Notes: generated by a model from the letters alone, not told the origin. DNA of 64,000 nucleotides from a virus (IMGVR_UViG_3300023174_000064:82038-146037); one strand, 5' to 3'; positions 36,696-49,957 are shown, counted from the stretch's first letter. A program made the numbers and translations.

Positions 36696-37859
36696 TTATT
36701 TGTTATATGCTTGCGGATAGTAAGTGGGAAACCATTCTCCCCTTTTTTGTCTTTCACGAACAGCTTTGAATCCTGCTGGATCACCTTCTAATTCGCCTTC
36801 TGGTGTAATATTAAAAGCAAGACCAGCATCACTTTGAAACATTTTTTCCATTTGTTGCCTAGTTCTATTATCTGGTGGATGTAATAAACCAACCATACTA
36901 TCTATTGCGGCGGGAGCTGCAGCTGCCATACCACCTACAACCGCACTGCCTACGCCAGACATTAAAGCTAAAGTATCAGCAGAAATTGCACCCCGTCTTG
37001 CACCACTTGGAGGTGTTTGTGGTTTCGTGGGTGTGGATGCGGAAGCTGGTGTTTGTGTTGTAGTTGGGGTTACTGGTTTTGAAACTTCTATTGTGCCTGC
37101 TCTTAATGGTCCACTAGAATAACCTTCTATTGTGCCTGCTCTTAATGGTCCACTAGAATAACCTTCTATTGTGCCTGCTCTTAATGGTCCAGAAGAAATA
37201 TTTGCTGTTGCTTTTGTTGTCTGGGGGGCTAACACATGAGGAGAAAGTATAATTTTTTTGGGATCTCTTACATTAATTATTTCATGCGGGACAACTTCTC
37301 CAATTTTTTTATCATATGCTTTTATAGCGTCTATTCCTCTTTCATCTAAAGCACTTTGTATTCGTGCTAAATAGTCAGGGTTTTTTCTATCTTTAAAATT
37401 ATCTGGAATAGATATTCCCAATCGTTCGCCCACTGTTGGTATATTTTCTCCATAACCCATTTCTATTGGATTTTCTATATTAGCATACGCAGTAATAATT
37501 CTACTACCTGGTGCGTATGAATGTGTAGTTTTACTTGTTGGTGGTTTGAAAGGACGAAGATACCATGGTTGTTTTATTTCTATACTATTTGGTATTGTTG
37601 TCAGATAACGTTCAGCATAAGTTGGACTTGAAGTCCAATATTGTCCGGGACCCCATGTATTAGTACCAAGATTATTACTTATTCTTCCTGTTTCTGCAAA
37701 ATCAAAATTTGGTGTAGCAGACGTTCCACGATATAGTGGTTGAGGTAATCCGGTTTTAGGGTCTATAGCCTTTGTTCCTTTTAAACGGGTTAAAAGATCA
37801 TTTACATAATTATTAAATGAATTATCAGATTCTGATAAAAATTGAATAAAGCTTTTCAT
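36696..37859 (-). CDS. CTS-like-tagged protein with ADP-ribosyltransferase-like domain
   Basis: MKSFIQFLSES start after TATAAATA; LYRGT...GPGQYWTSSP.YAERY ART-like motifs. Confidence 0.6.
   Translation of the reverse strand: MKSFIQFLSESDNSFNNYVNDLLTRLKGTKAIDPKTGLPQPLYRGTSATPNFDFAETGRISNNLGTNTWGPGQYWTSSPTYAERYLTTIPNSIEIKQPWYLRPFKPPTSKTTHSYAPGSRIITAYANIENPIEMGYGENIPTVGERLGISIPDNFKDRKNPDYLARIQSALDERGIDAIKAYDKKIGEVVPHEIINVRDPKKIILSPHVLAPQTTKATANISSGPLRAGTIEGYSSGPLRAGTIEGYSSGPLRAGTIEVSKPVTPTTTQTPASASTPTKPQTPPSGARRGAISADTLALMSGVGSAVVGGMAAAAPAAIDSMVGLLHPPDNRTRQQMEKMFQSDAGLAFNITPEGELEGDPAGFKAVRERQKRGEWFPTYYPQAYNK
37085..37191. repeat. 39-bp tandem repeat, about 2.7 copies (SSGPLRAGTIEGY)
   Basis: Unit cttctattgtgcctgctcttaatggtccactagaataac read directly. 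Confidence 0.9.
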
Positions 37860-37874
37860 ACTAATATTTATAAT

Positions 37875-37904
37875 AAAAAACCTCACTTTTACGTGAGGTT
37901 TTTT
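37875..37904. terminator. Bidirectional terminator
   Basis: AAAAAACCTCAC-TTTTAC-GTGAGGTTTTTT. Confidence 0.8.
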
Positions 37905-38000
37905 AAGAGTTATTTGTACGATTCTGTTAGACTCTAATCACAGACAACGCTGAAGTTGTAGCACCTTCAGAAAGCTTTTATAATATAAAATAAAGTGTCT

Positions 38001-38162
38001 TTAATAATTCTTAGCAATACTAGGAAGACGACCAAGCCGTTCTAGGGCTTCGCGGGTCTTCTTCTTGGCATTTTCAGCAATAGCAAGTTGACGATCTCGC
38101 GTAGCATTACGCTTACGCTTACGGTGCTTCATGAAAACTTTACGAGTAGGTGTGTTAGCCAT
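38001..38162 (-). CDS. Small highly basic protein (53 aa)
   Basis: MANTPTRKVFMKHRKRKRNATRDRQ...; own promoter 7 nt upstream. Confidence 0.65.
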   Translation of the reverse strand: MANTPTRKVFMKHRKRKRNATRDRQLAIAENAKKKTREALERLGRLPSIAKNY

Positions 38163-38177
38163 AATGTTTATTATATA

Positions 38178-38429
38178 CTACGGTTTAAACAAGTCAAATA
38201 ATTTATCCCAAAATCTTTTAATAAAATTTGGAAATCCTAGAGGTCCTCGTTGTAGGCTGTACTGCCAACCAGACAGATCTGTGGCTCTCATAAACTCTTC
38301 GGCACTCATTCTGGAGGACTGAGTGGAAATGCTTCTCCACAGCTTAACTTCATTAGACAACACCTTGATCTGCTTTAACAGCAGTTCTTGGTATTGTGTA
38401 TGAAGGTCTCGGCAGTTTTTATCACACAT
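38178..38429 (-). CDS. Hypothetical protein
   Basis: TAATG coupling to guaC. Confidence 0.55.
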   Translation of the reverse strand: MCDKNCRDLHTQYQELLLKQIKVLSNEVKLWRSISTQSSRMSAEEFMRATDLSGWQYSLQRGPLGFPNFIKRFWDKLFDLFKP

Positions 38430-39487
38430 TATGAAAAGATCGTATTAATTTGTCGGTTCACTCGTATAAACGTAGTACACTTTGGAAGATCCTTGAGACG
38501 AGCCGCACCAACGTATGTGCAAGCAGAACGAACACCACCAAGAATTTGTTGCATCACACCAGCCACAGGGCCTGCTGGTTCAACAAACACTCGCTTTCCT
38601 TCTGCTGCACGATATGTTGCCACTCCTCCAGAACGCTTCTCCATTGCTGCTGCTGAGGACATCCCGTAGAACTCCTTGCCCTCGTCTGTCAGCTCGCCTG
38701 CTGATTCGTCTGTACCAGCAAACATTCCACCAATCATAACAAAATCTGCACCCGCTCCAAATGCCTTGGCTACATCACCAGGACAGGTACAACCACCGTC
38801 CGATATCACGTAACCACCCAATCCGTGTGCGGCATCAGCACACTCCATGATGCACGACAGTTGCGGATAGCCAACACCAGCAACCTTGCGAGTCGTGCAG
38901 ACTGATCCAGGACCAATACCAATCTTTACAATATTTGCTCCTGCAAGAATCAGTGCTTCAGTCATTTCTCGTGTCACAACATTTCCAGCAATCAGAATAT
39001 GATCCGGAAACAATCCACGAATAGTACGAACATAATTCACAAACTTTTCAGTGTACCCGTTTGCCACATCAATACAAATAAATTTGATGGACTTATGCTT
39101 GTTTAGAATTCGTTCAGCCTTTTGAATTTCTTCCATGCTGGAATTCATGTCACCCATGCCCATGGTGTACACCACATTAGGTGGCCAGTTCACATGATCC
39201 GTGATCCAACCGTACATAAAGTTGTCCCATTCGGCTTCTGTGTAATATTTGTGAATACCACACAGTGCATTATATTCTGCTAGGCTGTCAGCCATTTGAA
39301 ACGTACCAACTGTGTCCATGTTGGCAGCAACAATCGGCACACCAGTCCATTCTTGTTCCATATTGTCTGGAAGTTTAAACGTAAACTTGCGTGCCACATC
39401 AACTTTACTGCGACTGTCAAGATTACTGCGCTTTGGGCGAATCAGAACGTCGGCAAAATCCAGCTTGATATCATCTTCAATCTTCAT
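38429..39487 (-). CDS. guaC: GMP reductase
   Basis: [41 protein letters not shown] and FYGMSS motifs. Confidence 0.95.
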
Positions 39488-39532
39488 AATAACAATTTAC
39501 TCCAAAAAAGTCACACAGTCAAGTAAAAAACA

Positions 39533-39772
39533 TTATTTTCCGCCAGCAGCGTAGTAACCAGAGATGGCAGAACGCAGTTTAGTCATGATTTTTGCCAAAT
39601 TACGCCAATCTTTTTGATCAAGCAGATACTCTTCGTACATACCAAGCACTTCAGCAGCAGTTTCGGCCAATTTTTGTGAAGTTTTTTCGAGAAGTTCTGA
39701 TTTTTTCTCTTCAGGCATTGGTAGATCCCCTTGTGGTTCTGGTTTTTTCTTATTGGATGTCAGTTTTTTCAT
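39533..39772 (-). CDS. Hypothetical protein
   Basis: ORF in operon. Confidence 0.55.
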   Translation of the reverse strand: MKKLTSNKKKPEPQGDLPMPEEKKSELLEKTSQKLAETAAEVLGMYEEYLLDQKDWRNLAKIMTKLRSAISGYYAAGGK

Positions 39773-40187
39773 TTCTGATCAATTTAAAAACGCGATTTGG
39801 GTAAAAACTTCTCCACTCACTAGCATCTAAGTCCCAAACTGCCATAACTCCTTGTCTATTGTATTTAGTTGCAACCGGATCTTTATCTTGCAGAGTACAT
39901 CTCATGCGTCTCATGGTTCCGTCAGTGATTTTATAAAAGAAAAGAGTGCAAACTCCTTCATTTAATTGTTCATCAATTTCGGTTGGTGAAGGATTTATTA
40001 TTTCAACAGGAGTTTTATCTTTTCTTTCCTGAATTTCTGCTAAAGATTGATCAACAAACTTTAATTCACCAATAGTTCGTAAAATTTTATTTTCACTTTT
40101 GGCAAATTTACCACTAGCATCTCGCGGTTGGAGTGCTTTTGACCACATTCCAGAAAAATCTAATGGATTTTTTTTAAATTTTGCCAT
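39750..40187 (-). CDS. WYL-like/SH3 (DUF2693-type) protein
   Basis: F.K.TDGTMRRMRCTL...VWDLDASEWRSF. Confidence 0.7.
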   Translation of the reverse strand: MAKFKKNPLDFSGMWSKALQPRDASGKFAKSENKILRTIGELKFVDQSLAEIQERKDKTPVEIINPSPTEIDEQLNEGVCTLFFYKITDGTMRRMRCTLQDKDPVATKYNRQGVMAVWDLDASEWRSFYPNRVFKLIRNEKTDIQ

Positions 40188-40188
40188 T

Positions 40189-40560
40189 TTATTCGTAAAA
40201 ATCCGGATTTTTCTTTCCGTATAGCCGAATAATTTGACCTGCAGTTGCGTTTGCTTCGTTTTCGCAGTCAGAACCTGTGTCGCCATTCAGTTCTTCACCG
40301 TTCACGTTTTGTTTGTGGTGTACAAGTTCGTGTGCAAGTGATCTGGCAACATCAAAAAGTGCTCGACCTTTGGCGTAAACTTTGATATTTTTAGTGTTTG
40401 GGCAATAATTTGCCGTTGTCATGTTGCCGTCTCGTACTTGCACCAATTCAATTTTTGGTGTATCTTGTAATTTCAGATGATCACAAGCAAATTGAACAAA
40501 ATCGTCCAATTTTTCTTCCAACAACATGGTGGTTTTTAGATATTCGTTGAATCCTAACAT
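40189..40560 (-). CDS. Small zincin-like metallopeptidase (HEXXH)
   Basis: RSLAHELVHHKQ...ENEANA; TATAAATA upstream. Confidence 0.75.
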   Translation of the reverse strand: MLGFNEYLKTTMLLEEKLDDFVQFACDHLKLQDTPKIELVQVRDGNMTTANYCPNTKNIKVYAKGRALFDVARSLAHELVHHKQNVNGEELNGDTGSDCENEANATAGQIIRLYGKKNPDFYE

Positions 40561-40593
40561 GACTCTAGTATTTATAGAAAGCTAAATATTGGT

Positions 40594-41214
40594 ATGAAAT
40601 CATTTTTACAACACCTTCAAGAACGTTCTTTATTGGCTCCCATGATGTTGTCTGCTGCAATTGGTGCAGGAACTCCTCCAGAAGAACCACCACCAACAAC
40701 CACTACCACTACGACAACAAAACCCACAGAACCAAAAAAACCAAAAACAGTTACTACACAACAGTACGCAACAGATAATGCAGCAAAAAATGGTATTTTG
40801 CAATCTGAAGATTTAACTCTTGTTGGAAATTTACAAAATCCAACACCATGGAATGATAAATTTGGAGAAAAGCCGTGGTATTTTGGTAAAGCTTATTTAA
40901 ATCCACAAGCAGCAAGTGCATTTAAAAGAATGGATGACGATTACTATAAAGAAACCGGAAAACGTATAGGCATTAATAGTGCTTATAGAAGCCGACAACA
41001 GCAAGCAATGTTTGGTGGAAAATATGATGTTGCTGCTCAACCTGGGAAGTCTAGACACGGGCTAGGATTAGCGTTAGATGTTCAACCAGGAACTCCAGAA
41101 TTTAATTGGATGAAATCACGAGGTGGCAATTACGGTTGGAAATGGATGAATATTAAGAATGATGCTTGCCACTTTGGATACTGTGGAAACATGGAAGTTC
41201 CAGATAAAGATTAA
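40594..41214 (+). CDS. CTS-like-tagged M15B D-Ala-D-Ala carboxypeptidase-like protein
   Basis: MKSFLQHLQE; INSAYRS..QQ, AQPGKSRHGLGLALD, YGW...H. Confidence 0.8.
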   Translation: MKSFLQHLQERSLLAPMMLSAAIGAGTPPEEPPPTTTTTTTTKPTEPKKPKTVTTQQYATDNAAKNGILQSEDLTLVGNLQNPTPWNDKFGEKPWYFGKAYLNPQAASAFKRMDDDYYKETGKRIGINSAYRSRQQQAMFGGKYDVAAQPGKSRHGLGLALDVQPGTPEFNWMKSRGGNYGWKWMNIKNDACHFGYCGNMEVPDKD

Positions 41215-41295
41215 TTAAATTAAATAATAATTCCACGTTGACGTAATTTAAATTTCATCCAATCGTTGGCATTTTCAAAAACGGTTTTAACTGGT

Positions 41296-42144
41296 TCATA
41301 ACTTACTTTTGCTGGTTTTTTTTACTTCTTTTCTAGCTTTTATAATTTCTTTCATGCTCATTCCTGGTATTGCAGAGTGAACAAGTTTAGAGAGCAGGGC
41401 GTCTTCTTTGGCTTGAAATTTTATATCCCCTTTTTGTTTTTTCTCTCCCTCATCATAAACACCAGATAAAGCTCGTATTGTTGCTTCCTGATCTTTAGTT
41501 TGTATTCCTAACTGTGTTAAATGTTTTCCTATGTAATATTTGCTTGTTGGTACTGTGGAAAATCTTTTAACTCTATCTCCGTGAACTAATGTGATAACAT
41601 CAATTCCTTCTCTTCTATGATGAGCCGCCAATCCCATTTTTGCTCTTTGAGTATCTTCTTTTCCTAGTGGAGTTCTAGAAGAAACTTTTCCTTCTTTTGG
41701 GGGAACAGGCTTAACTCCTTGTTGTTGTAATTCTTTAGAAAGCCGTGTGGATGAAACAAGAGCGGGTCTAGGTCCACGTGAAAGAACTCCCCCTTTTATT
41801 TCCTCTCCAGTACGTCTAAATGTGGTTGGTGAAGATCTGTCCGTTTTAGATCCAACTTCTTCAAAAGAAACGTCCAATTCTCCTTTAGCCCCAGGTCTAC
41901 TAACTTTAACTACCCAACTACCAGATCCATTTTTATGTGGTATTGTGTGAGTATAATCGTGCTCATGACGATCAACATAAAAGTGCTTGTGTATATCTTT
42001 AAAAAATGCGTCTTTATTTTGTTGTGTAATTTTGTGACCTTCGTAAGAATATAATTCACCTATTGTATCCGCAGCACCGACCATCTGTGCTTCATCACCC
42101 GATTCTCTAGAGGATAAAATAGGTTGTCTAGTTATTTTGCTCAT
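41296..42144 (-). CDS. Basic hypothetical protein
   Basis: 282-aa ORF. Confidence 0.65.
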   Translation of the reverse strand: MSKITRQPILSSRESGDEAQMVGAADTIGELYSYEGHKITQQNKDAFFKDIHKHFYVDRHEHDYTHTIPHKNGSGSWVVKVSRPGAKGELDVSFEEVGSKTDRSSPTTFRRTGEEIKGGVLSRGPRPALVSSTRLSKELQQQGVKPVPPKEGKVSSRTPLGKEDTQRAKMGLAAHHRREGIDVITLVHGDRVKRFSTVPTSKYYIGKHLTQLGIQTKDQEATIRALSGVYDEGEKKQKGDIKFQAKEDALLSKLVHSAIPGMSMKEIIKARKEVKKTSKSKL

Positions 42145-42189
42145 TTGGGTTGATTAAATACTGTTATTATAAACTGAATAAAAGCATTT

Positions 42190-43380
42190 TTATTTTTGTT
42201 GATTTGCTGGATGATCTTTACCAACAACAACTGGAGAACCAGGTTCGCTTGTTGGTCGTACAGCAAAGTTTCCTGCTTTTGCTAGATTCTTCTTACCACC
42301 TTTAATACGAAGACCAGCAATAACACCTTCATTCTCACCAATACCGTTTAGTTGTTTATCCAAATAACGGTGATCGTGAGCGTCTGCATCAACAACTCGC
42401 CACTTCTTACCGGTAGCTTCGTCTACCACATGTGAAGGTAGAACACCACCGGGTTTTTCGCCTCTGCCAGCGTGAACAGCAAACACCATGGCAACAACTC
42501 CACCATTATTTAAATGTTGACGTGCGTGATGCCAATTGCTGTCTGGGCCTTGAATACCTGTAGAAGAAAATGTGAGATGGTAATTATCAGGAAGTTTTTT
42601 AGGAGTACCGTCTGTATTCATTACTCTGCTGGCTATCTTGGTGTAATCGTAAAATTGAGTGTTTTTGTGTTCGCTAAAAATTTCAGGATGTACGGTTTCC
42701 CAAGGAATATCAGAAACAACATTTAGACGAGCAACAGCTTTCTTACCTTGTTTGGCCATGGCCCGTTCGTGTGCGTCTAATTCATTGTGTAGTATTATAC
42801 CAGCACTTTTTGCTTTAGTTACTACTCTTTCTAATTTTCTTCCCCGTGCTTCTTGACTCATGGCTCCACGGCCAGTCATGTTTAAACAAGCTTTAGCACA
42901 CTCTCCGGTTGCACACGGACAAGTATTAATTAAACCGGATTGTTTTTCTGGAAGCAAAGTTAATCCTATTGTTCCTCTGTCTGGAATTGTGGATTCTTCT
43001 TTTGCTAGTTTGGGATTTCCACCTTGTGCAGTAAATAATTTAGTTCCAGGTCTAATTCCTAAATCTGCTCTTGCTGCTTTTTTTGCTTTTTTATCTCTCC
43101 AGAGTTTATGTGATTCACCCATGTCTGCTTTCATTGTTGCAAACGAATATTTTTTAGCTTCAGGTTGAGGAGCAGTGGACGCAAGAACTGGTAATGAGAT
43201 TTGTTCGCTTAAAAATTCAATATAAGTTTCAAAAGTAATGTCTTCAAATAGTTCATCAAATACTGATTCGGTTATTAAACGATCAGCAGTAGTTTCATAA
43301 TTTTCTACTATTACATCACTAATGGTTCTGAATTGTTTTCCAATAAAACGCTCTATTAATTTTTTGCTGAATGGATTCAT
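42190..43380 (-). CDS. GP88-family protein
   Basis: CPCAT.EC...CL..TGRG, RLNVVSDIPWE, QFYDYTK and YHLTFS motifs. Confidence 0.75.
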   Translation of the reverse strand: MNPFSKKLIERFIGKQFRTISDVIVENYETTADRLITESVFDELFEDITFETYIEFLSEQISLPVLASTAPQPEAKKYSFATMKADMGESHKLWRDKKAKKAARADLGIRPGTKLFTAQGGNPKLAKEESTIPDRGTIGLTLLPEKQSGLINTCPCATGECAKACLNMTGRGAMSQEARGRKLERVVTKAKSAGIILHNELDAHERAMAKQGKKAVARLNVVSDIPWETVHPEIFSEHKNTQFYDYTKIASRVMNTDGTPKKLPDNYHLTFSSTGIQGPDSNWHHARQHLNNGGVVAMVFAVHAGRGEKPGGVLPSHVVDEATGKKWRVVDADAHDHRYLDKQLNGIGENEGVIAGLRIKGGKKNLAKAGNFAVRPTSEPGSPVVVGKDHPANQQK

Positions 43381-43392
43381 TTTACTTTCCTG

Positions 43393-44112
43393 TTATAAAC
43401 TGAGTCGTTGATCTTGTTTGGATCTGAGATATTCTGTAACTTTATCTAGGTATCCTAGATTGCGTAACTCTTTGAACACCAAGTTCTCCACCGAGAACTC
43501 GCCACCTTGTTTCAGTGCAGCTGCACGCATCTCACGGAATTTAGTTTTTAATGCTTCAAACGCTTCATCTTCCGCACTGGTACTGATTAGCGTATCAATC
43601 TTTTCCACGTACTGTTCAACTTTACGTTTGATGCCCGGATCTTTCAGATTGACTTCTTTCTTTACCGGTTGAACCAACCACTTATCATTCTTGACACTGT
43701 ACACGCCTTGATCTTTGGTGTACGCGGTATCTTTGTCTTGAGCGTACAGTTCAACGTCGTGTCCGTAAATTTTAATATCGTGGACGAGCCCCCATAGTTG
43801 TTTCTTGCCACGCAGGTACTCGTCAAGTAGTCCTTCGCATTCTGGAATCTTATCCATGTCAACCACAACGTGCAGATCAATGTCTGAATACGGTGTGTAG
43901 TTGTAATTGGCGTTACCACCAACTAAAATAATGTCAGTGATTGCCGCAGGAGGAATCTTGGCGAATCCTGCCCAGGTTCTGGCAATCATCATCAGCTTGG
44001 CACGAACTTCAGACTTCAATTTGGTGTCATCCCAAATTTTGAGATTTAACTCGTCATGATACTGCAGTGTTAACTCTACTGCTTCTCGTAAAATGTTCCG
44101 GAAAGATTTCAT
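43393..44112 (-). CDS. CTS-like-tagged Pol-beta-type nucleotidyltransferase
   Basis: MKSFRNILREA; GGNANYNYTPYSDIDLHVV; GEFSVENLVFKELR. Confidence 0.8.
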   Translation of the reverse strand: MKSFRNILREAVELTLQYHDELNLKIWDDTKLKSEVRAKLMMIARTWAGFAKIPPAAITDIILVGGNANYNYTPYSDIDLHVVVDMDKIPECEGLLDEYLRGKKQLWGLVHDIKIYGHDVELYAQDKDTAYTKDQGVYSVKNDKWLVQPVKKEVNLKDPGIKRKVEQYVEKIDTLISTSAEDEAFEALKTKFREMRAAALKQGGEFSVENLVFKELRNLGYLDKVTEYLRSKQDQRLSL

Positions 44113-44942
44113 TAGTCAATCTTGTCTGGATTGCCGTTCATGTAGTCGTGTACTGAACTAATGTAGTCTTTAGCCTTGGTGATTTTGGATTGTACCCAAG
44201 CTTCTAGTTGGGTGTCGTCCTTCATCATGCTTGCAAGCTCTTGAGCCTTTTGTGCAAGAACTTTTAGTTCACCGATAGCCATTTGACCTTCGGTGTCTCG
44301 TTCCTCGTATATTTTTGGCATACTTGGAAGTGAGCCGGTTACCGAATTGTACATCTTCTTGTTAGCGTTTAGAACACTGTTTAACAAACCGCTGCCGGTT
44401 GTTGCAGGTACTGTAGATTGTGGTGCAGGTGTGCGTATTGGGATGCTGGGTATCTTATCTTGATAGACTGGATATTTTCCACGTATATTATCGTTTGGGT
44501 TCTCTTTATCCGGAAGAATACGGTCGTATCCAGATGTTGGTTTTGGAGTTGGAGTAGTATTATCTTCTACTCCAATAAGGTTTCCGTCTGGACCGTAAAT
44601 TGGTTTTCCTGGTTGTGCACCACCCCATGCGCCGGTTCCGGGTTTTGGTTTGCTGCCACCCCAACTGCCGTCTCCAGGAGTTGGTGTTGGCTTGGGTTTT
44701 GGAAACCATGAAGGAAGTGGACGTTCCGGAGCGTCCTTTTTTCTTATCCATCGGTTTCGTGGTTTATAATTAAGACCTACTAATTTGCGATCATATAGTA
44801 TCTCCCAACCACCGTCGTCGGTTGGTGGTTTTGACATATCACTCATTGGATCATAAAATGGGGTATATGGGGTATATGTAATTTTATCTTCACTAACAAT
44901 TTTTTTCCAGGTTTCGTGTAATGCTTTGGTGATGGGATCCAT
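44112..44942 (-). CDS. Pro-rich protein with C-terminal LEAWVQSKIT module
   Basis: Start MDPITKALHE after TATAAATA (44960-44967); C-terminal module recurrent in T4-like phages. Confidence 0.65.
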   Translation of the reverse strand: MDPITKALHETWKKIVSEDKITYTPYTPFYDPMSDMSKPPTDDGGWEILYDRKLVGLNYKPRNRWIRKKDAPERPLPSWFPKPKPTPTPGDGSWGGSKPKPGTGAWGGAQPGKPIYGPDGNLIGVEDNTTPTPKPTSGYDRILPDKENPNDNIRGKYPVYQDKIPSIPIRTPAPQSTVPATTGSGLLNSVLNANKKMYNSVTGSLPSMPKIYEERDTEGQMAIGELKVLAQKAQELASMMKDDTQLEAWVQSKITKAKDYISSVHDYMNGNPDKID

Positions 44943-44974
44943 ATAATTTCCTTTTTTAGTATTTATACAAAATG

Positions 44975-45003
44975 AAAACCCCCGGATTTCTCCGAGGGTT
45001 TCC
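44975..45003 (-). terminator. Intrinsic terminator
   Basis: AAACCCTCGGA-GAAA-TCCGGGGGTTTT on the minus strand. Confidence 0.75.
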
Positions 45004-45025
45004 AAAGACCTAAGAGATTACAGGA

Positions 45026-45184
45026 TCACTTGGCGGCGCAAGCACTCACAGCAGCAACCCCAGACCACACCCAAGCAATGGTCTTTACAGCGTAGGGAAG
45101 CACAGCAAGAAACAGCGCAACTTGAAGAGGATTCTTCCAGCAGAATCCACCGCTAACCGGACATGACTTATTATTAGTACTCAT
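45026..45184 (-). CDS. Small membrane protein (52 aa)
   Basis: AAAGGAGA RBS; MSTNNKSCPVSGGFCWKNPLQVALFLAVLPYAV.. Confidence 0.65.
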   Translation of the reverse strand: MSTNNKSCPVSGGFCWKNPLQVALFLAVLPYAVKTIAWVWSGVAAVSACAAK

Positions 45185-45267
45185 TAGTGTCTCCTTTATA
45201 AAATGCCTTCCCGAAAGAAGGTAAGATATCTAGCAGGATTCCACTAATTTTTCCGTTTTAGGAAAAC

Positions 45268-45813
45268 TTAAAAAACCTCGTTTATAGCGTGAATAACGCC
45301 TTTTTGAATGCCAGCATTTGGAAAAACTGCATGAACTGTCTTTAAGTACGATTCTAGGTTCTGGTTACGCTGCCACGAATCTTTCTTGGTTTGTTTTCCT
45401 ACACCACTTTTATCACCAGGATATACGGATATAAACAATCTGCCACCCGGCTTCAAGTGCGATTGTGCGGCTTTCAGTACGTCAAGATGAACTTCTGGTT
45501 CTTTGATTGTGTTCAGCACGTTGAATAAAGTCACAGTGTCTGCGCCTCCGCGAGCCTTCACGGTTTCCGCCACTTTTTTATTGTGTTCTTCTGAACGATT
45601 GAACGGATCCAGCACGTGACTTTCCACTCCGTGTTTGGCTAAAAAGTTCACACCGTGATCGTACTTGCCACCACCCAGATCCACATTAAGTGTGTCCGGC
45701 TTCCATCCAATATGTTTGGCAACAGTACTAAACCCTTTGGCCACTTGCGATTGTGAGGTTCCGGCAGATGAAAACTCTTGAGCTTCTTGTAAGTGTTGTT
45801 TAAATGTTTTCAC
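45268..45813 (-). CDS. CTS-like-tagged class I SAM methyltransferase
   Basis: MKTFKQHLQEA; VDLGGG, DTVTLFNVLN and LKPGG motifs. Confidence 0.8.
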   Translation of the reverse strand: MKTFKQHLQEAQEFSSAGTSQSQVAKGFSTVAKHIGWKPDTLNVDLGGGKYDHGVNFLAKHGVESHVLDPFNRSEEHNKKVAETVKARGGADTVTLFNVLNTIKEPEVHLDVLKAAQSHLKPGGRLFISVYPGDKSGVGKQTKKDSWQRNQNLESYLKTVHAVFPNAGIQKGVIHAINEVF

Positions 45814-47513
45814 GAAGGATCTCCTGGCGATTTTATTGTTCCTGCTTCTCGTAGTCGTTGCCTAATTTCAGGAGTAACTCGGTTTGAAAATGCCTGAAGT
45901 CTGCGAACCGTATTAGAATCTCCACCGTTTCTGTATAAATCTATAAATCCACGTTTATCAACTGTATTAGTTTTTCCTGTTTCCCAATCAGTTTCTTGTT
46001 CTGTATACTTTGGTTTAGAGTGGTGTAGTATTTGAAACAGGTGTTCGTCTGATAATGTATGCGGATGATGTTCTGCAATATACATTCGTAATGGTTCAGA
46101 TCCTGTTGTTACAGCTTTAGTTAACAGGTGATCTATATTCATGTCTTCTTTTTTTCGTGCGGCCCATCGTTTTCTTTCTGGACTGCCCATAGAATCCAGA
46201 GCCCATCTCATGGCAGATATTTGCACTGCGTGATTTGGGTGTTCCAGTGCAGTTTCTGCGTGTTCGGGATGCATAGCCGCCATTCGTTGGCCTGCTTGTG
46301 GAACAGCCCACTGAGCAACAAGAGGATCAGGATCGCGTAGTGCACGGTGCATTTGTTCTCGGTCGTATACGTTTCGTGCTCCGTGACTACGAACTATAGG
46401 ATCTTCACTGTCTAATAGCTTACCGACAATATCAGGAGTGATGAGTTGTTTTCTTTCAGAGGAACTCATATCATCCACATGCATCATTGCTTGTTTAACA
46501 GTTTCGCGTCCTCCTTTGGTGAGTGCATCGCGTAATTGTTTGTGTGAAACTGGGTGAGTGTATTTTGCTGAAGCCAAATGTGCTGCTTTCATTCGGTCTG
46601 CTTGTGTGTCTGATTTGGTAGGAACATCTAAAATTTTACTTAGATGTTCTTGTTTATCAGTGTGATTGTCTGTGTGAATATTTTGGTAGTGCATGTAGTC
46701 ACGCATACCATGAATAGCACCACGGGCTTCTGAATCTTTTATTTCTGGAAGAGGTCTGTGTGGATCAGACAGGACTTGCATTTGTTCTGGATTTTTGTCA
46801 TTGGTCCATACCGGAAGATCTTTTTCATTCATAAATTGAATCTGATCGTCTTCGCTTCTATCTTTTACAGGCACATTAATCTGGTACCGTTCTCCCTTGT
46901 ATTTGGGAGCTTTAGGTATCAGCGCGTACAGTGGAGCTTTTTCATTGTAATGCTGAAACCTGTTGCCTTCGCCAGTGGGAGCGGTACACCAGTTGGTACC
47001 ACGACCCACAGCACACGCTGCGGTTTTGGTACGGGGTTGCACGATTGACCAGTGTTCGTTTTCACCGTGAACAGTGTATTCGTCTGGAGACAATCCACCC
47101 AACGATTCATCTGAAACTGGATACACTTTTGCAAGATGGGCGTGTAGTGCACCGGCTCCTTGAATTCTGGCTAAACTGGCATCACTCTTGCCTTCTGCTC
47201 GGGCTTGACGTAAACGTTTCAGATTGGGTATAACTGTGCTATGTACGTCTTCTTCTCGCTGAATTCCTCCACCATGAAAATGTTTCAGAACCCATCGGCC
47301 TTCTTCAGTTGTTAGATCATGTAAACCTAAAGAGTGTGAAATAATATTAGTTTTTGATTCGGGTGTTTGTGCTCCACGATTAGTGTTGTTACGATAATGT
47401 GTGAGTTGTCCTAGTTTATCCAAAATAGCATCACCATGCTGACCAATAAACTGATGCCATGCTTTATTTTCAAGCAGGAACGCTTCTTCCAGATATTGAC
47501 GGAACGATAACAT
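45810..47513 (-). CDS. CTS-like-tagged protein with GTNWCT motif and HEAT-like repeats
   Basis: MLSFRQYLEEA; GRGTNWCTA...FQHY; LLDSEDPIVR/LRDPDPLVA repeats. Confidence 0.6.
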   Translation of the reverse strand: MLSFRQYLEEAFLLENKAWHQFIGQHGDAILDKLGQLTHYRNNTNRGAQTPESKTNIISHSLGLHDLTTEEGRWVLKHFHGGGIQREEDVHSTVIPNLKRLRQARAEGKSDASLARIQGAGALHAHLAKVYPVSDESLGGLSPDEYTVHGENEHWSIVQPRTKTAACAVGRGTNWCTAPTGEGNRFQHYNEKAPLYALIPKAPKYKGERYQINVPVKDRSEDDQIQFMNEKDLPVWTNDKNPEQMQVLSDPHRPLPEIKDSEARGAIHGMRDYMHYQNIHTDNHTDKQEHLSKILDVPTKSDTQADRMKAAHLASAKYTHPVSHKQLRDALTKGGRETVKQAMMHVDDMSSSERKQLITPDIVGKLLDSEDPIVRSHGARNVYDREQMHRALRDPDPLVAQWAVPQAGQRMAAMHPEHAETALEHPNHAVQISAMRWALDSMGSPERKRWAARKKEDMNIDHLLTKAVTTGSEPLRMYIAEHHPHTLSDEHLFQILHHSKPKYTEQETDWETGKTNTVDKRGFIDLYRNGGDSNTVRRLQAFSNRVTPEIRQRLREAGTIKSPGDPS

Positions 47514-47728
47514 CAGTCTGGTCCACCAATCATTTTTGCGATCTCAGGATTTTCCAGTTCTTTCGACGGTTTTTTTTGCAGAATAGATTTGCGCTGATTT
47601 TTCAACCAGCTTTGGTAGTACAACTCCATTTCAGGTTGTGTCATACCACCGTGCTCGGGTGCGCCTTCGTAGTCCGCGTCTTGGGGTTGTTCGTCGGCTT
47701 CCGAGATGTACTGTAAAAATGATTTCAT
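47513..47728 (-). CDS. CTS-like-tagged small protein
   Basis: MKSFLQYISEA. Confidence 0.65.
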   Translation of the reverse strand: MKSFLQYISEADEQPQDADYEGAPEHGGMTQPEMELYYQSWLKNQRKSILQKKPSKELENPEIAKMIGGPD

Positions 47729-48030
47729 TCGCAGTTCCACTTTCTCAGAGCTTTATTGATGCGTGAGTCTGGATCACGTGCTGTTTTGGCAGACGTTAAC
47801 TTTCGCTTCATGCCTTTCATTCGGCGACAAAATGAAAGTCTGCGCTTGGCTTTCTTGGAGCCCTTTTTTAATTTTTTTGGATCGGTGGTGACAGCAGTTT
47901 GCAGCTTGCTGCCCGGGTTTTCGCGTCGATAAGACTCAACGCCTTTTTTATTCAAACCACCTTCTGGATCTTTACCGGCTTTCCGGGTCCACGCGGCAGA
48001 TTCTTGCAGATGTTGGAGAAATGATTTCAT
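47725..48030 (-). CDS. CTS-like-tagged basic protein (DUF6321-like)
   Basis: MKSFLQHLQE; GKDPEGGLN..G...SFC.RM.G...DPDSRINKALRKWNC. Confidence 0.75.
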   Translation of the reverse strand: MKSFLQHLQESAAWTRKAGKDPEGGLNKKGVESYRRENPGSKLQTAVTTDPKKLKKGSKKAKRRLSFCRRMKGMKRKLTSAKTARDPDSRINKALRKWNCE

Positions 48031-48038
48031 GTAATTGT

Positions 48039-48416
48039 TTACGCGTAGGGGTAGTGTGGATTGGTGGTGTCGTCTAAATCGCGTTGTTGTTTTTCTAAAT
48101 TTTGTAAATGTTTAAATTCTGAATCACTGGCTTTTCGTATAGGATTATCTGTTCCATATTTAAAAGCAGCGTCTTGAACCCATTGTTTAATTGCGTTATC
48201 TGCTTTTTGCGTATCAATTTCTAGTTCGGTGGGTTCACGAAATGGTTCTAGTCTTTCCAGATCTTTGTCTGGTCTGGCTAACTCTCGTGCTCTTTGTCGT
48301 GCTTGTTCGTCTTCTAATTGTTTGACTGCTCGATGAGTGTTCACAGCATCATCCATCGGCTGTTCTTGTTCTGGAGTTAATCCAGCTTCTTGCAGATAAT
48401 GTAGAAACGATTTCAT
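48039..48416 (-). CDS. CTS-like-tagged hypothetical protein
   Basis: MKSFLHYLQEA. Confidence 0.7.
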   Translation of the reverse strand: MKSFLHYLQEAGLTPEQEQPMDDAVNTHRAVKQLEDEQARQRARELARPDKDLERLEPFREPTELEIDTQKADNAIKQWVQDAAFKYGTDNPIRKASDSEFKHLQNLEKQQRDLDDTTNPHYPYA

Positions 48417-48808
48417 CTGTTTGCGTCGCGTTCTTGCTTTTCTTTTGCTAGTTGAGCCAGTCGTTCTGGAGTGTATCCAGCTTTGGCTGCTTGTTGTTTT
48501 CCAGAATCAGTGAGATCGTTTCCAATTTTAGGTGTTGGAAGATCAGTACCAGGCACAGGACCTGGGCCTAAACCTAAACCGGTGGATTGTGTTGCGTATG
48601 AATCACCTTGTTTCCAATTGTCTAACATTTTTTCACTACTGTTTTGACGCCAAGTGTCACCAAACGGTACCCCACTTTTCTTATCTTGTACGTCTTGTGC
48701 TGCCGCGTGTAGTGGACGAACTTGTGGGTGTACTGGTGGTTTGGTTGTGTCTGTATTTTCTAAAATTTTATTTACGGTTTCTATTAATCGGCGGGTAATT
48801 GGATCCAT
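48413..48808 (-). CDS. Hypothetical protein with MDPIT-type N-terminus
   Basis: MDPITRRLIETVNKILE; TATAAATA at 48827-48834. Confidence 0.7.
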   Translation of the reverse strand: MDPITRRLIETVNKILENTDTTKPPVHPQVRPLHAAAQDVQDKKSGVPFGDTWRQNSSEKMLDNWKQGDSYATQSTGLGLGPGPVPGTDLPTPKIGNDLTDSGKQQAAKAGYTPERLAQLAKEKQERDANR

Positions 48809-48836
48809 TTGAAATTCCTTTTTTATTATTTATATG

Positions 48837-49409
48837 TTAACGAATTTTTTTTTGCCACGCGGCAGACTCTGTGATATTTACAGGAGTCATGGCTGCGGGT
48901 CCTGCCGATCCACTACTTTTATCTTTTGGTTTTGGTTTACCAGAACCGGTTGAAACAAAAGTAGCGTTAGCGTCTGGATCTATAGGTCTAAACATTAGTG
49001 TATCAATCACGTTTTGGCGAAACGTTTGAGTTAATTCGTCGTGAGTTCTTTGTTTAAAATTATATCCAGTTCCTGCTGCGTCTCGTTTGGCAACAGCTCG
49101 AAACCCTGCAGGATTTCCGTATAATTCTCCGGTCATTCGGTCTTGATCAAAAGCGGTTCCCACATCTGTTCTCCACGCTTTTTCTTTGTCCATATTCATT
49201 TCTCTGTTCATAGCGTTTGCATATGCGGCAGATATTATCCAACCGGATTCGTTTCCTCCAGCCGGACTATATGCTGTAGCAAATAAAGCTTTTTGTTTGT
49301 CGTATTCTTCTCGTTGCTTTTTTGCTTCTTCTCCTGCGTCTGCAGGTAATGCGGATCTGGGGGCGTAAAATTGTTGCTGTTCTGTGATGTATTGGAGAAA
49401 TGATTTCAT
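48837..49409 (-). CDS. CTS-like-tagged hypothetical protein
   Basis: MKSFLQYITEQ. Confidence 0.7.
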   Translation of the reverse strand: MKSFLQYITEQQQFYAPRSALPADAGEEAKKQREEYDKQKALFATAYSPAGGNESGWIISAAYANAMNREMNMDKEKAWRTDVGTAFDQDRMTGELYGNPAGFRAVAKRDAAGTGYNFKQRTHDELTQTFRQNVIDTLMFRPIDPDANATFVSTGSGKPKPKDKSSGSAGPAAMTPVNITESAAWQKKIR

Positions 49410-49943
49410 TTAAAATCCTTCTGCAGAGTAATTAAGACCCGACGAATCCATAGTTTCTTTGTGGCGGGCAAGATTTGAAACAAACTTTACAGCGTAATGT
49501 TTACTTATTTCTTCTAGCGGATTTTCTATAACACGCTGAGACACAGGGCTGGGTGCGCGTTCACCCGGAGCAAAATACTCTGCTCCTACGGTTTGTTGGA
49601 ATCCTTGACGAACATTGTATTGGGATAATACGGGGCGATGGCTTTGTATTGCTTCACGGTCTGCTTCATCAAAGTACACTGTGGGTTTACTGTTCTTTGT
49701 GCGTGCTCCGGTGGTTATCCAACGAGTGGCACGAGGAACTGCATATGTTAGAACGTGGTGCAACTTGCCGGTAAACAATCCTGTGCGACGTGACCAGTCT
49801 GCGGGAGGATTCCATCCGGCCACGTTTCCTGATTCTGAACCGTCTGGAGAAATGGCGTACTCGTGTGCTTCAGGAGTTACCTGTTGATCATCAAATCTGT
49901 ACAGTTTTCCGGATTCTGTGATGTGCTGGAGAAACGATTTCAT
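49410..49943 (-). CDS. CTS-like-tagged hypothetical protein
   Basis: MKSFLQHITES; late promoter upstream. Confidence 0.7.
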   Translation of the reverse strand: MKSFLQHITESGKLYRFDDQQVTPEAHEYAISPDGSESGNVAGWNPPADWSRRTGLFTGKLHHVLTYAVPRATRWITTGARTKNSKPTVYFDEADREAIQSHRPVLSQYNVRQGFQQTVGAEYFAPGERAPSPVSQRVIENPLEEISKHYAVKFVSNLARHKETMDSSGLNYSAEGF

Positions 49944-49949
49944 TTTAAA

Positions 49950-49957
49950 TATTTATA
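49950..49957 (-). promoter_or_regulatory. T4-type late promoter TATAAATA (others at 20949+, 21981+, 24718-, 37865-, 40569-, 44960-, 48827-)
   Basis: Exact gp55 consensus just upstream of late ORFs; gp33 present. Confidence 0.75.

Follow-up and report, generated by a model that had tools for sequence, protein, structure and literature searches.

Results

A gene cluster with a common N-terminal decapeptide

Positions 36696-49943 of a 64,000-nucleotide stretch of viral DNA (IMGVR_UViG_3300023174_000064:82038-146037; this whole stretch is called the window below, and positions are counted from its first letter) hold a cluster of genes, ten of which encode proteins that begin with nearly the same ten residues, hereafter the tag. 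IMG/VR lists the virus as a 146-kb record, estimated to be 80% complete, and the window is its last 64 kb. The ten open reading frames (ORFs) start with M-K-[S/T]-F-x-x-x-[L/I]-x-E, the exceptions being one GTG start and one Leu at position 2. An earlier note on this DNA had listed ten tagged starts with Glu at position 10, and all of them were found at the positions and on the strands that it gives, with E10 present in 10 of 10; the two weaker tags that it had pointed out at 40560 and 43380 are also real (MLGFNEYLKT, which lacks E10, and MNPFSKKLIE, respectively).

F4, L/I8 (Leu in seven tags, Ile in three) and E10 are invariant, position 7 is occupied by His (four), Tyr (four), Phe (one) or Ile (one), and the P1' residue that follows Glu10 is Ala or Ser in eight tags; the decapeptide can be written M-K-S/T-F-x-Q-aromatic-L/I-x-E. 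The protein bodies behind the tag (the cargos) are unrelated and belong to different Pfam families or to none. The scan of the whole 146-kb genome identified the strict motif at no other ORF start. A looser motif, M-x-x-[FYLW]-x3-[ILVMF]-x-E, was dropped, as it produced false positives, e.g. the gp41-like helicase; specificity resides only in the strict form.

Alignment of the ten genes on their start codons revealed a conserved block of exactly 30 nt, with a mean pairwise identity of 68% vs 27-30% in the flanks. Within this block Ser3 is encoded by AGC, TCA, TCT or TCG and Leu8 by TTA, CTT or CTG, and 90 differing codon pairs are synonymous. Conservation that is limited to 30 nt and tolerates synonymous codon changes indicates selection on the peptide, not on the DNA.

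A genome with T4-type head genes

Profile searches of the 146-kb record identified a Peptidase_S77 prohead protease of the gp21 type (C1:79335-79982; PF03420, E 2.6e-41) and a gp23-type major capsid protein (PF07068, E 2e-141). The capsid protein is at most ~56% identical to that of any cultured phage, the nearest being those of T4-like cyanophages, and the megablast search of the cluster against cultured phages returned no match. Sixteen metagenome studies of lakes and fresh water contain near-identical pieces of the cluster. Thus, with head genes of the T4 type, the nearest cultured capsids in cyanophages and the metagenomic matches from lakes and fresh water, the source is an uncultured freshwater T4-like phage.

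Comparison with the capsid-targeting sequence of T4

The internal proteins IPI, IPII and IPIII of T4 carry a capsid-targeting sequence (CTS), described by Mullaney and Black in 1996 and reviewed since (PMC9026906, PMC3012670). Translation of the T4 genes gives MKTYQEFIAE as the start of both IPII and IPIII, and MKTFKEFTST as that of IPI, which is cleaved further on. Amber-suppressor mapping of the IPIII CTS assigned targeting to residues 4 and 7 and processing to residues 8 and 10, and Asp at position 10 blocked cleavage but not targeting (PMC9026906). Both sets of determinants are present in the tags: for targeting, F4 in 10 of 10 and His, Tyr, Phe or Ile at position 7 (Tyr or Phe at position 4 and Phe at position 7 in T4); for processing, L/I8 and E10 in all ten, which form the gp21 site L/I-x-E. 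The likeness to the T4 CTS proposed in the earlier note thus holds residue by residue against the T4 genes and the published mutational map, and the genome encodes a protease of the gp21 type.

Sites of the same kind occur in the head proteins of this phage. Its capsid protein reads ...EQYLIE followed by APANA, close to the T4 gp23 maturation site (...FLTE followed by AEIGG), and its gp21 homologue starts with MKLITE..FLTE followed by A. The number of [LI]xE sites is 15 in the scaffold-like protein, 9 in the gp68-like protein and 9 in gp21, vs 5, 3.5 and 2.7 expected, i.e. an about threefold excess. Tag-like repeats were sought inside the scaffold, core and capsid proteins of the phage and none was found. 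Between the gp21 and scaffold genes, outside the window (C1:78079-79338), lies a gene for a 419-aa Pro-rich protein that starts with MKIKLKNLLE followed by S, and contains internal KSLLE-S repeats; it is probably a further processed head-core protein.

Two further T4 genes bear on the CTS of that phage. The N-terminus of gp61.1 (L050:1467-1631), a hypothetical protein of 54 aa encoded in the primase region, is MKTFKEFIKE, a near-perfect CTS. T4 Acb1 (gene 57B, adjoining ipI; L011:11953-12411) starts with MMEFKDFSTG, with aromatic residues at positions 4 and 7 like IPI and without the L/I-x-E site, and in a relative Acb1 bears the full tag MKSFLQYLLE (L028:3064-3516). In T4, Acb1 may belong to the CTS proteins in a degenerate form that is not processed.

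The tag in relatives and the exchange of cargos

IMG/VR was searched with a degenerate DNA pattern for MKSF[LF]Q[HY]xxE. Of 30 matched stretches 29 begin an ORF; chance alone would yield an estimated 0.2 matches or so, given how informative the pattern is and how large the collection. With those of the window added, the matches amount to 48 distinct tagged proteins in 31 cargo clusters, so that in environmental T4-like contigs the tag precedes at least 31 unrelated families, among them DUF6267 (the cyanophage 'cytidylyltransferase' T4-GC190), DUF6321, HAD phosphatases, an AAA_33/zeta-type kinase, phage lysozyme and Acb1 (E 9.5e-23), whose contig has a T4-type head module as well. The S77 protease is encoded on all four tagged contigs with an estimated completeness of at least 44%, and on two shorter ones. 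Five relatives have 1 to 5 tags each, as counted with a pattern that finds 8 of the 10 tags of this genome. Pattern scans over the genome and its relatives, for which the earlier note had suggested an HMM, restrict the strict motif to the cluster within this genome and place the tag on varied cargos elsewhere.

The closest relative (G003/L030; 78-95% nucleotide identity in common segments) illustrates how the set of cargos changes. Its counterpart of the VanY protein (cargo 2 in Table 1) is identical over the first 26 residues and then continues as a GH24 lysozyme; another tagged gene replaces p125, a tagged 279-aa protein stands at the place of an untagged window protein, and p177 and p190 are missing. 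In contigs from independent lake metagenomes, cassette deletions end at tags or promoters: one contig joins 44966 to 47723, with loss of p71, the 567-aa protein and the methyltransferase, and another joins 48832 to 49392, with loss of p190 and the break inside its tag. These junction contigs are short, were matched at 90% likeness, and should be treated with care. The modular picture of tag plus cargo drawn in the earlier note is backed by these swaps and natural variants.

The methyltransferase family shows, at the sequence level, the tag as an add-on. Homologues down to ~50% identity are nearly all tag-initiated, while more distant ones, 162-165 aa long, lack it and start directly with the catalytic core. 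A complete 46-kb phage genome bears such a tagless methyltransferase, and the search for S77 in it found nothing. There (L068:7135-8504) the untagged methyltransferase adjoins a protein that, from visual inspection of its N-terminal Cys motif, is probably GP88-like; outside T4-like phages these two cargos may be transferred together. As another observation on gene order, the junction ...WNCE-stop/ATGAAA behind the DUF6321 gene (47723-47730) recurs on other contigs (proteins P0035, P0047 and P0058), where a tagged nucleotidyltransferase replaces p71 and gene callers report 'MEL[RL]M', having taken the overlapping frame; one joint thus serves for different cargos.

Tagged enzymes in cyanophage virions

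Purified virions of cyanophage S-SM1 contain T4-GC190 (Sullivan et al. 2010, PMC3037559), and the T4-GC190 gene, with the start MKKFSAFLNE, is the sole tag match in the S-SM1 genome. For S-CREM2, 52 proteins have been reported in the virion proteome, including non-structural enzymes whose presence puzzled the authors (PMC10665884); its GenBank record has 221 annotated features. The scan of ORF starts in the whole S-CREM2 genome with a relaxed tag, M-[KR]-x-[FYL]-x-x-[FYH]-[LIM]-x-E, identified four ORFs, i.e. gp6 (a hydrolase of S-adenosylmethionine, SAM), gp13, gp14 (a kinase) and gp154 (a cytidylyltransferase), and all four are in the virion proteome (p about 0.003 by chance, estimated as (52/221)^4 or similar). 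The proteome also includes gp136 (MQTFSMFFSE, Lys-rich), gp12 (with internal RFASFMAE followed by A), gp156, which is a homologue of the nucleotidyltransferase of the window, and gp137, whose C-terminus is a DUF6321 domain.

A link of these virion proteins to the CTS is made in neither paper ('internal' is absent from the S-CREM2 text, and 'internal protein' and 'internal head' from the S-SM1 text), and literature searches found no paper connecting those cyanophage virion enzymes with the CTS. The enzymes of S-CREM2 and S-SM1 resemble the cargos of the window in their tags (MKNFSSFLTE, MKDFDSFLEE, (V)KRFDAFLTE and MKKFSAFLNE) and in the nucleotidyltransferase and DUF6321 families that they have in common with it; they differ in number, with 1-5 tags in those phages vs 10 here.

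The ten cargos

The tagged genes and their neighbors are listed in Table 1. The VanY, NTP_transf_2, Methyltransf_23 and DUF6321 assignments pass the Pfam thresholds, so that four of the labels proposed in the earlier note (M15/VanY peptidase, nucleotidyltransferase, methyltransferase, DUF6321) stand; its ART-like label (ART, ADP-ribosyltransferase) remains below threshold, and for its HEAT-like label there are language-model look-alikes only. The class of small, basic, DNA-associated proteins typified by T4 IPI-III is represented by the DUF6321 cargo alone (10 kDa, pI 11), while the other mature cargos span 7-63 kDa and pI 4.7-9.2, and several of them are enzymes.

Table 1. Tagged genes, genes with variant or second leaders, and two late promoters of the cluster (window coordinates; a slash separates the N-terminal element from the residues that follow it)
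Feature	Position	Strand	Length (aa)	N-terminus	Remarks
Cargo 1	36696..37859	-	387	MKSFIQFLSE/S	ART-like N-domain; ART-PolyVal E 0.002, below cut-off
Cargo 2	40594..41214	+	206	MKSFLQHLQE/R	VanY/M15 peptidoglycan peptidase; VanY E 4e-9
Cargo 3	43393..44112	-	239	MKSFRNILRE/A	Pol-beta-type nucleotidyltransferase (NTP_transf_2, passes Pfam threshold), helical C-domain
Cargo 4	45268..45813	-	181	(M)KTFKQHLQE/A, GTG start	SAM-dependent methyltransferase; Methyltransf_23 E 4e-9
Cargo 5	45810..47513	-	567	MLSFRQYLEE/A	LRV/HEAT-like repeat protein (candidate; language-model look-alikes, score 0.92)
Cargo 6 (p71)	47513..47728	-	71	MKSFLQYISE/A	Acidic orphan; 75% identical in L030
Cargo 7	47725..48030	-	101	MKSFLQHLQE/S	DUF6321 (passes Pfam threshold); mature pI 11; internal-protein-like
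Cargo 8 (p125)	48039..48416	-	125	MKSFLHYLQE/A	Acidic orphan; different tagged gene in L030
Cargo 9 (p190)	48837..49409	-	190	MKSFLQYITE/Q	Orphan
Cargo 10 (p177)	49410..49943	-	177	MKSFLQHITE/S	Orphan; first gene behind late promoter 49950-49957
HExxH protein, variant weak tag	40189..40560	-	123	MLGFNEYLKT/MLLEE	Own late promoter 40569-40576; 93% identical in L030
GP88-family protein	42190..43380	-	396	MNPFSKKLIE/R	PF17338 E 1e-33
Pro-rich protein	44112..44942	-	276	MDPITKALHE/T	First gene behind late promoter 44960-44967
Pro/Gly-rich protein	48413..48808	-	131	MDPITRRLIE/T	First gene behind late promoter 48827-48834
Late promoter motif TATAAATA	37865..37872	-			5 nt before ATG of cargo 1
Late promoter motif TATAAATA	49950-49957	-			6 nt before ATG of cargo 10

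In cargo 1 the ART-like N-domain is joined by a Pro/Thr linker, which contains SSGPLRAGTIEGY three times, to a C-terminal module that combines a Gly/Ala-rich hydrophobic stretch with GELEGDPAGFKAVRERQK..FPTYYP. Its Pfam match to ART-PolyVal is weak (19 bits vs a cut-off of 31), and the AlphaFold 2 (AF2) model, built from a 4-sequence alignment, is unusable (predicted local distance difference test, pLDDT, 36). Its homologues hold the tag and the C-terminal module and exchange the middle, which in the homologue P0004 carries PF03496, the family of T4 Alt; this displacement backs the ART reading. The C-module (window 36696-36990) is common to P0004-P0009, where it follows different N-domains in tagged or untagged proteins, and its core motif recurs in p190 (about 49130), with which cargo 1 has GEL.G.PAGF[KR]AV in common; the module may serve for membrane insertion or ejection.

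The order of elements in cargo 2 is the tag, a hydrophobic segment SLLAPMMLSAAIGAG, a poly-Thr linker and the VanY/M15 domain. Cargo 3 was modelled by AF2 from a 30-sequence alignment with pLDDT 85, with residues 1-8 below 50; in this model the tag is a loose N-terminal appendage outside the domain fold. The PDB sequence search with cargo 3 found nothing, and Foldseek and VIA reported generic Pol-beta nucleotidyltransferase and helical-bundle matches only (E 1.5e-3 or weaker; Z at most 8), hence no specific function can be assigned to it. The LRV/HEAT likeness of cargo 5, which rests solely on language-model look-alikes, should be taken as a lead only.

Other genes of the cluster

The GP88-family protein has, besides its N-terminus, an internal and better CTS-like copy, ETYIEFLSE followed by Q (about residues 51-59), and this element is kept in L030 as AEYVDFLTE followed by Q, though the surrounding extension has diverged. 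The genes that start at 48808 and 44942 possess a second common leader, MDPIT-x-x-L-x-E, likewise with L-x-E at positions 8-10. It was considered as a second general tag and rejected: in IMG/VR it occurs only here and in the close relative G003, and is thus a lineage-specific variant. In the middle of the cluster lies an untagged gene of the GMP-reductase/IMPDH family (38429-39487; PF00478, E 2e-71), which looks like an auxiliary metabolic gene. Far from the cluster and outside the window, at C1:9870-11984, a 705-aa basic protein starts with MDNFFNKLME followed by A, with F4, L8 and E10, and may be an eleventh cargo.

Transcription units

The T4-type late promoter motif TATAAATA was found on the minus strand at 49957, 48834, 44967, 40576 and 37872, at the heads of five units; the earlier note had placed such a motif ahead of several units, which agrees with this result. 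Within the units the minus-strand genes are coupled via ATGA overlaps. A 14-bp terminator hairpin (44973-45004) precedes the late promoter 44960-44967, and a 13-bp hairpin (37874-37905) lies directly upstream of the promoter of cargo 1; these strong hairpins form, with the late promoters behind them, boundary units of terminator plus late promoter, a counterpart to the stem-loop cassettes with early promoters known from T4-type phages. At three genes (37859-37872, 49943-49957 and 40560-40576) TATAAATA ends 5-8 nt before the ATG, and those three late mRNAs would therefore be leaderless or nearly so, whereas the MDPIT genes have 17-18-nt leaders with AAGGA. The promoter motifs predict that the tagged genes are expressed late, at the time of prohead assembly.

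Discussion

We consider it likely, with a probability of about 80%, that the decapeptide is the T4-type capsid-targeting and processing propeptide of this phage, which would thus probably load exchangeable enzymes and small proteins into its head together with the DNA. The sequence shows the anatomy of the tag and its homology to that of T4, the protease gene, the late-promoter motifs, selection on the peptide and the exchange of cargos, and work by others has established how the T4 CTS functions and that virions of S-CREM2 and S-SM1 contain tag-bearing enzymes, which is indirect experimental support; packaging, cleavage and injection in this phage, and what the single cargos do, are inferred. 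The tagged genes would be transcribed late from TATAAATA promoters during prohead building; the N-terminal tag would attach the proteins to the prohead's scaffolding core via F4 and the aromatic residue 7; the gp21-type S77 protease would cut after Glu10 at L/I-x-E, so that mature cargo is released within the shell as the scaffold is broken down; and the cargo would remain in the head with the DNA, leave with it at the next infection and act before phage genes are expressed. Since ten residues suffice for targeting, any gene placed behind the 30-nt tag would become cargo, and the set is reshuffled between relatives accordingly. Likely roles of the cargos, as far as can be predicted, include ADP-ribosylation of host proteins in the manner of T4 Alt, DNA binding by the basic DUF6321 protein, peptidoglycan hydrolysis, and nucleotide or methyl transfer.

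Several points weigh against this interpretation. Residue 7 is His in four tags vs Phe in T4. For the plus-strand gene at 40594 no clear late promoter was found, and its VanY product has a signal- or SAR-like (signal-arrest-release) hydrophobic segment directly behind the tag, which suggests export instead of or besides packaging; the VanY/lysozyme pair may act as a lysin of the secreted or SAR type, as a virion lysin, or in both ways. The cargos show no significant depletion of internal [LI]xE sites (12 observed vs 15.6 expected, z -1.0; ratio 0.77 vs 1.16 in controls), thus an independent signature of exposure to the protease is missing. The authors of the S-CREM2 study cautioned that abundant non-structural proteins might co-purify with virions (PMC10665884). 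The ART assignment of cargo 1 is weak, and the enrichment in anti-defence functions suspected in the earlier note is hinted at by tagged Acb1 and SAM hydrolase in relatives, and by no cargo of the window.

Could the 30 nt instead be a DNA-level recombination or cassette-boundary element that marks shuffling joints, as promoter stem-loop cassettes do in T4-type phages, with a functionless peptide? Cargo swaps and population deletions do end at or inside the tag, terminator hairpins and late promoters flank the units, and the first four nucleotides of the tag (ATGA) also provide the stop codon of the upstream gene. However, we regard this explanation as improbable, as the tag DNA is only 68% identical, with many synonymous differences, and yet F4, L/I8 and E10 are invariant, the same peptide is encoded with different codons in distant phages, and neither E10, nor the match to the functional residues of T4, nor the virion proteomics would be explained. 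Even less credible is a tag that addresses its proteins to another destination or enzyme than the prohead (as the n-region of a membrane or periplasm signal, or for a modifying enzyme or a degradation system): the hydrophobic segment behind the tag of the VanY/lysozyme pair would fit, but it is present in only one of the ten tagged proteins, no candidate partner enzyme is encoded beside the cluster, and the motif matches both the T4 CTS and the cleavage rule of the S77 protease that the phage encodes, and is borne by proteins in virion proteomes. That the tag is a feature of translation initiation or mRNA, an A/U-rich 5' coding element aiding leaderless or coupled late genes without a Shine-Dalgarno sequence, is the least probable of all, since despite several tagged genes that lack a Shine-Dalgarno sequence and overlap the upstream stop codon, and two that lie 5-6 nt behind TATAAATA and may have leaderless mRNAs, synonymous variation indicates that amino acids and not bases are conserved, an internal copy exists at residues 51-59 of the GP88 protein, and the motif ends in a protease site and occurs on proteins in the virions of relatives.

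The interpretation of the tag as a CTS extends the T4 mechanism and does not introduce a new one: the principle of tag plus cargo has been known since 1996, and two reviews have already put the CTS forward as a means by which T4-like phages in general could load diverse proteins (PMC9026906, PMC3012670). What is common to the internal proteins of T4 and the cargos described here is the 10-residue N-terminal sequence M-K-T/S-Y/F-x-x-aromatic-I/L-x-E, which ends in a gp21 site and is followed by unrelated bodies, as well as genes that are late in T4 and predicted to be late here, and a cargo set that differs between relatives. The differences are 10 canonical tags in this phage vs 3 known CTS proteins in T4, cargos that are mostly enzymes of 19-63 kDa instead of small basic proteins, His or Tyr at position 7, one internal copy, a second leader class (MDPIT), and the distance from T4 itself (capsid protein at most about 56% identical to that of any cultured phage).

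The ADP-ribosyltransferase Alt of T4 is packaged, trimmed by gp21 and injected, and acts on host proteins. It is comparable as an enzyme carried in the head, with cargo 1 ART-like and with the Alt family PF03496 behind a tag in P0004; but Alt starts with (M)MELITELFDE, which is not a CTS of the internal-protein type, and cargo 1 is at best of the ART-PolyVal type, below the Pfam threshold. Polyvalent proteins (Iyer et al. 2017, PMC5512222) similarly bring enzymatic domains of several kinds (ART, peptidase, methylase, lysozyme) into the cell with the DNA as infection starts, but join two to fifteen disparate domains in one giant polypeptide, whereas here separate genes have their own short tag and one recognisable domain each. 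The ejection proteins of phiKZ and SPN3US (PMC5694885, PMC7411985) are likewise numerous and located inside the head, where a prohead protease processes them at x-x-E sites, and they enter the host by ejection; they belong to another lineage and have longer propeptides without a common 10-residue tag, and another cleavage motif.

Relative to what was known, the extensions are the reach of the CTS into the cyanophage-like and freshwater T4 branch, the mostly enzymatic cargo, and an account of published virion proteomes, in which the tag explains why a SAM hydrolase, kinases and a cytidylyltransferase occur in purified cyanophage particles. In a wider view, which we regard as less likely than not, the CTS could be an ancient portable address label across the T4 superfamily (coliphages, cyanophages, and uncultured freshwater and marine lineages), and the injected proteome might be readable from genomes and rich in enzymes of counter-defence or takeover, such as Acb1 against CBASS (the cyclic-oligonucleotide-based anti-phage signalling system), SAM hydrolase against restriction, ARTs and kinases. 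If this is true, the five cargos without known family (p71, p125, p177, p190 and the 567-aa repeat protein) would be new effectors. For the design of protein carriers from T4-type capsids, the natural diversity of functional tags is of use. A tag of ten residues, visible by eye in a sequence, would let the proteins that a T4-like phage carries into the cell be listed from sequence alone, uncultured phages included, and would yield a compact list of candidate effectors of the first minute of infection; the tagged Acb1 of a relative would then mean anti-CBASS activity before transcription.

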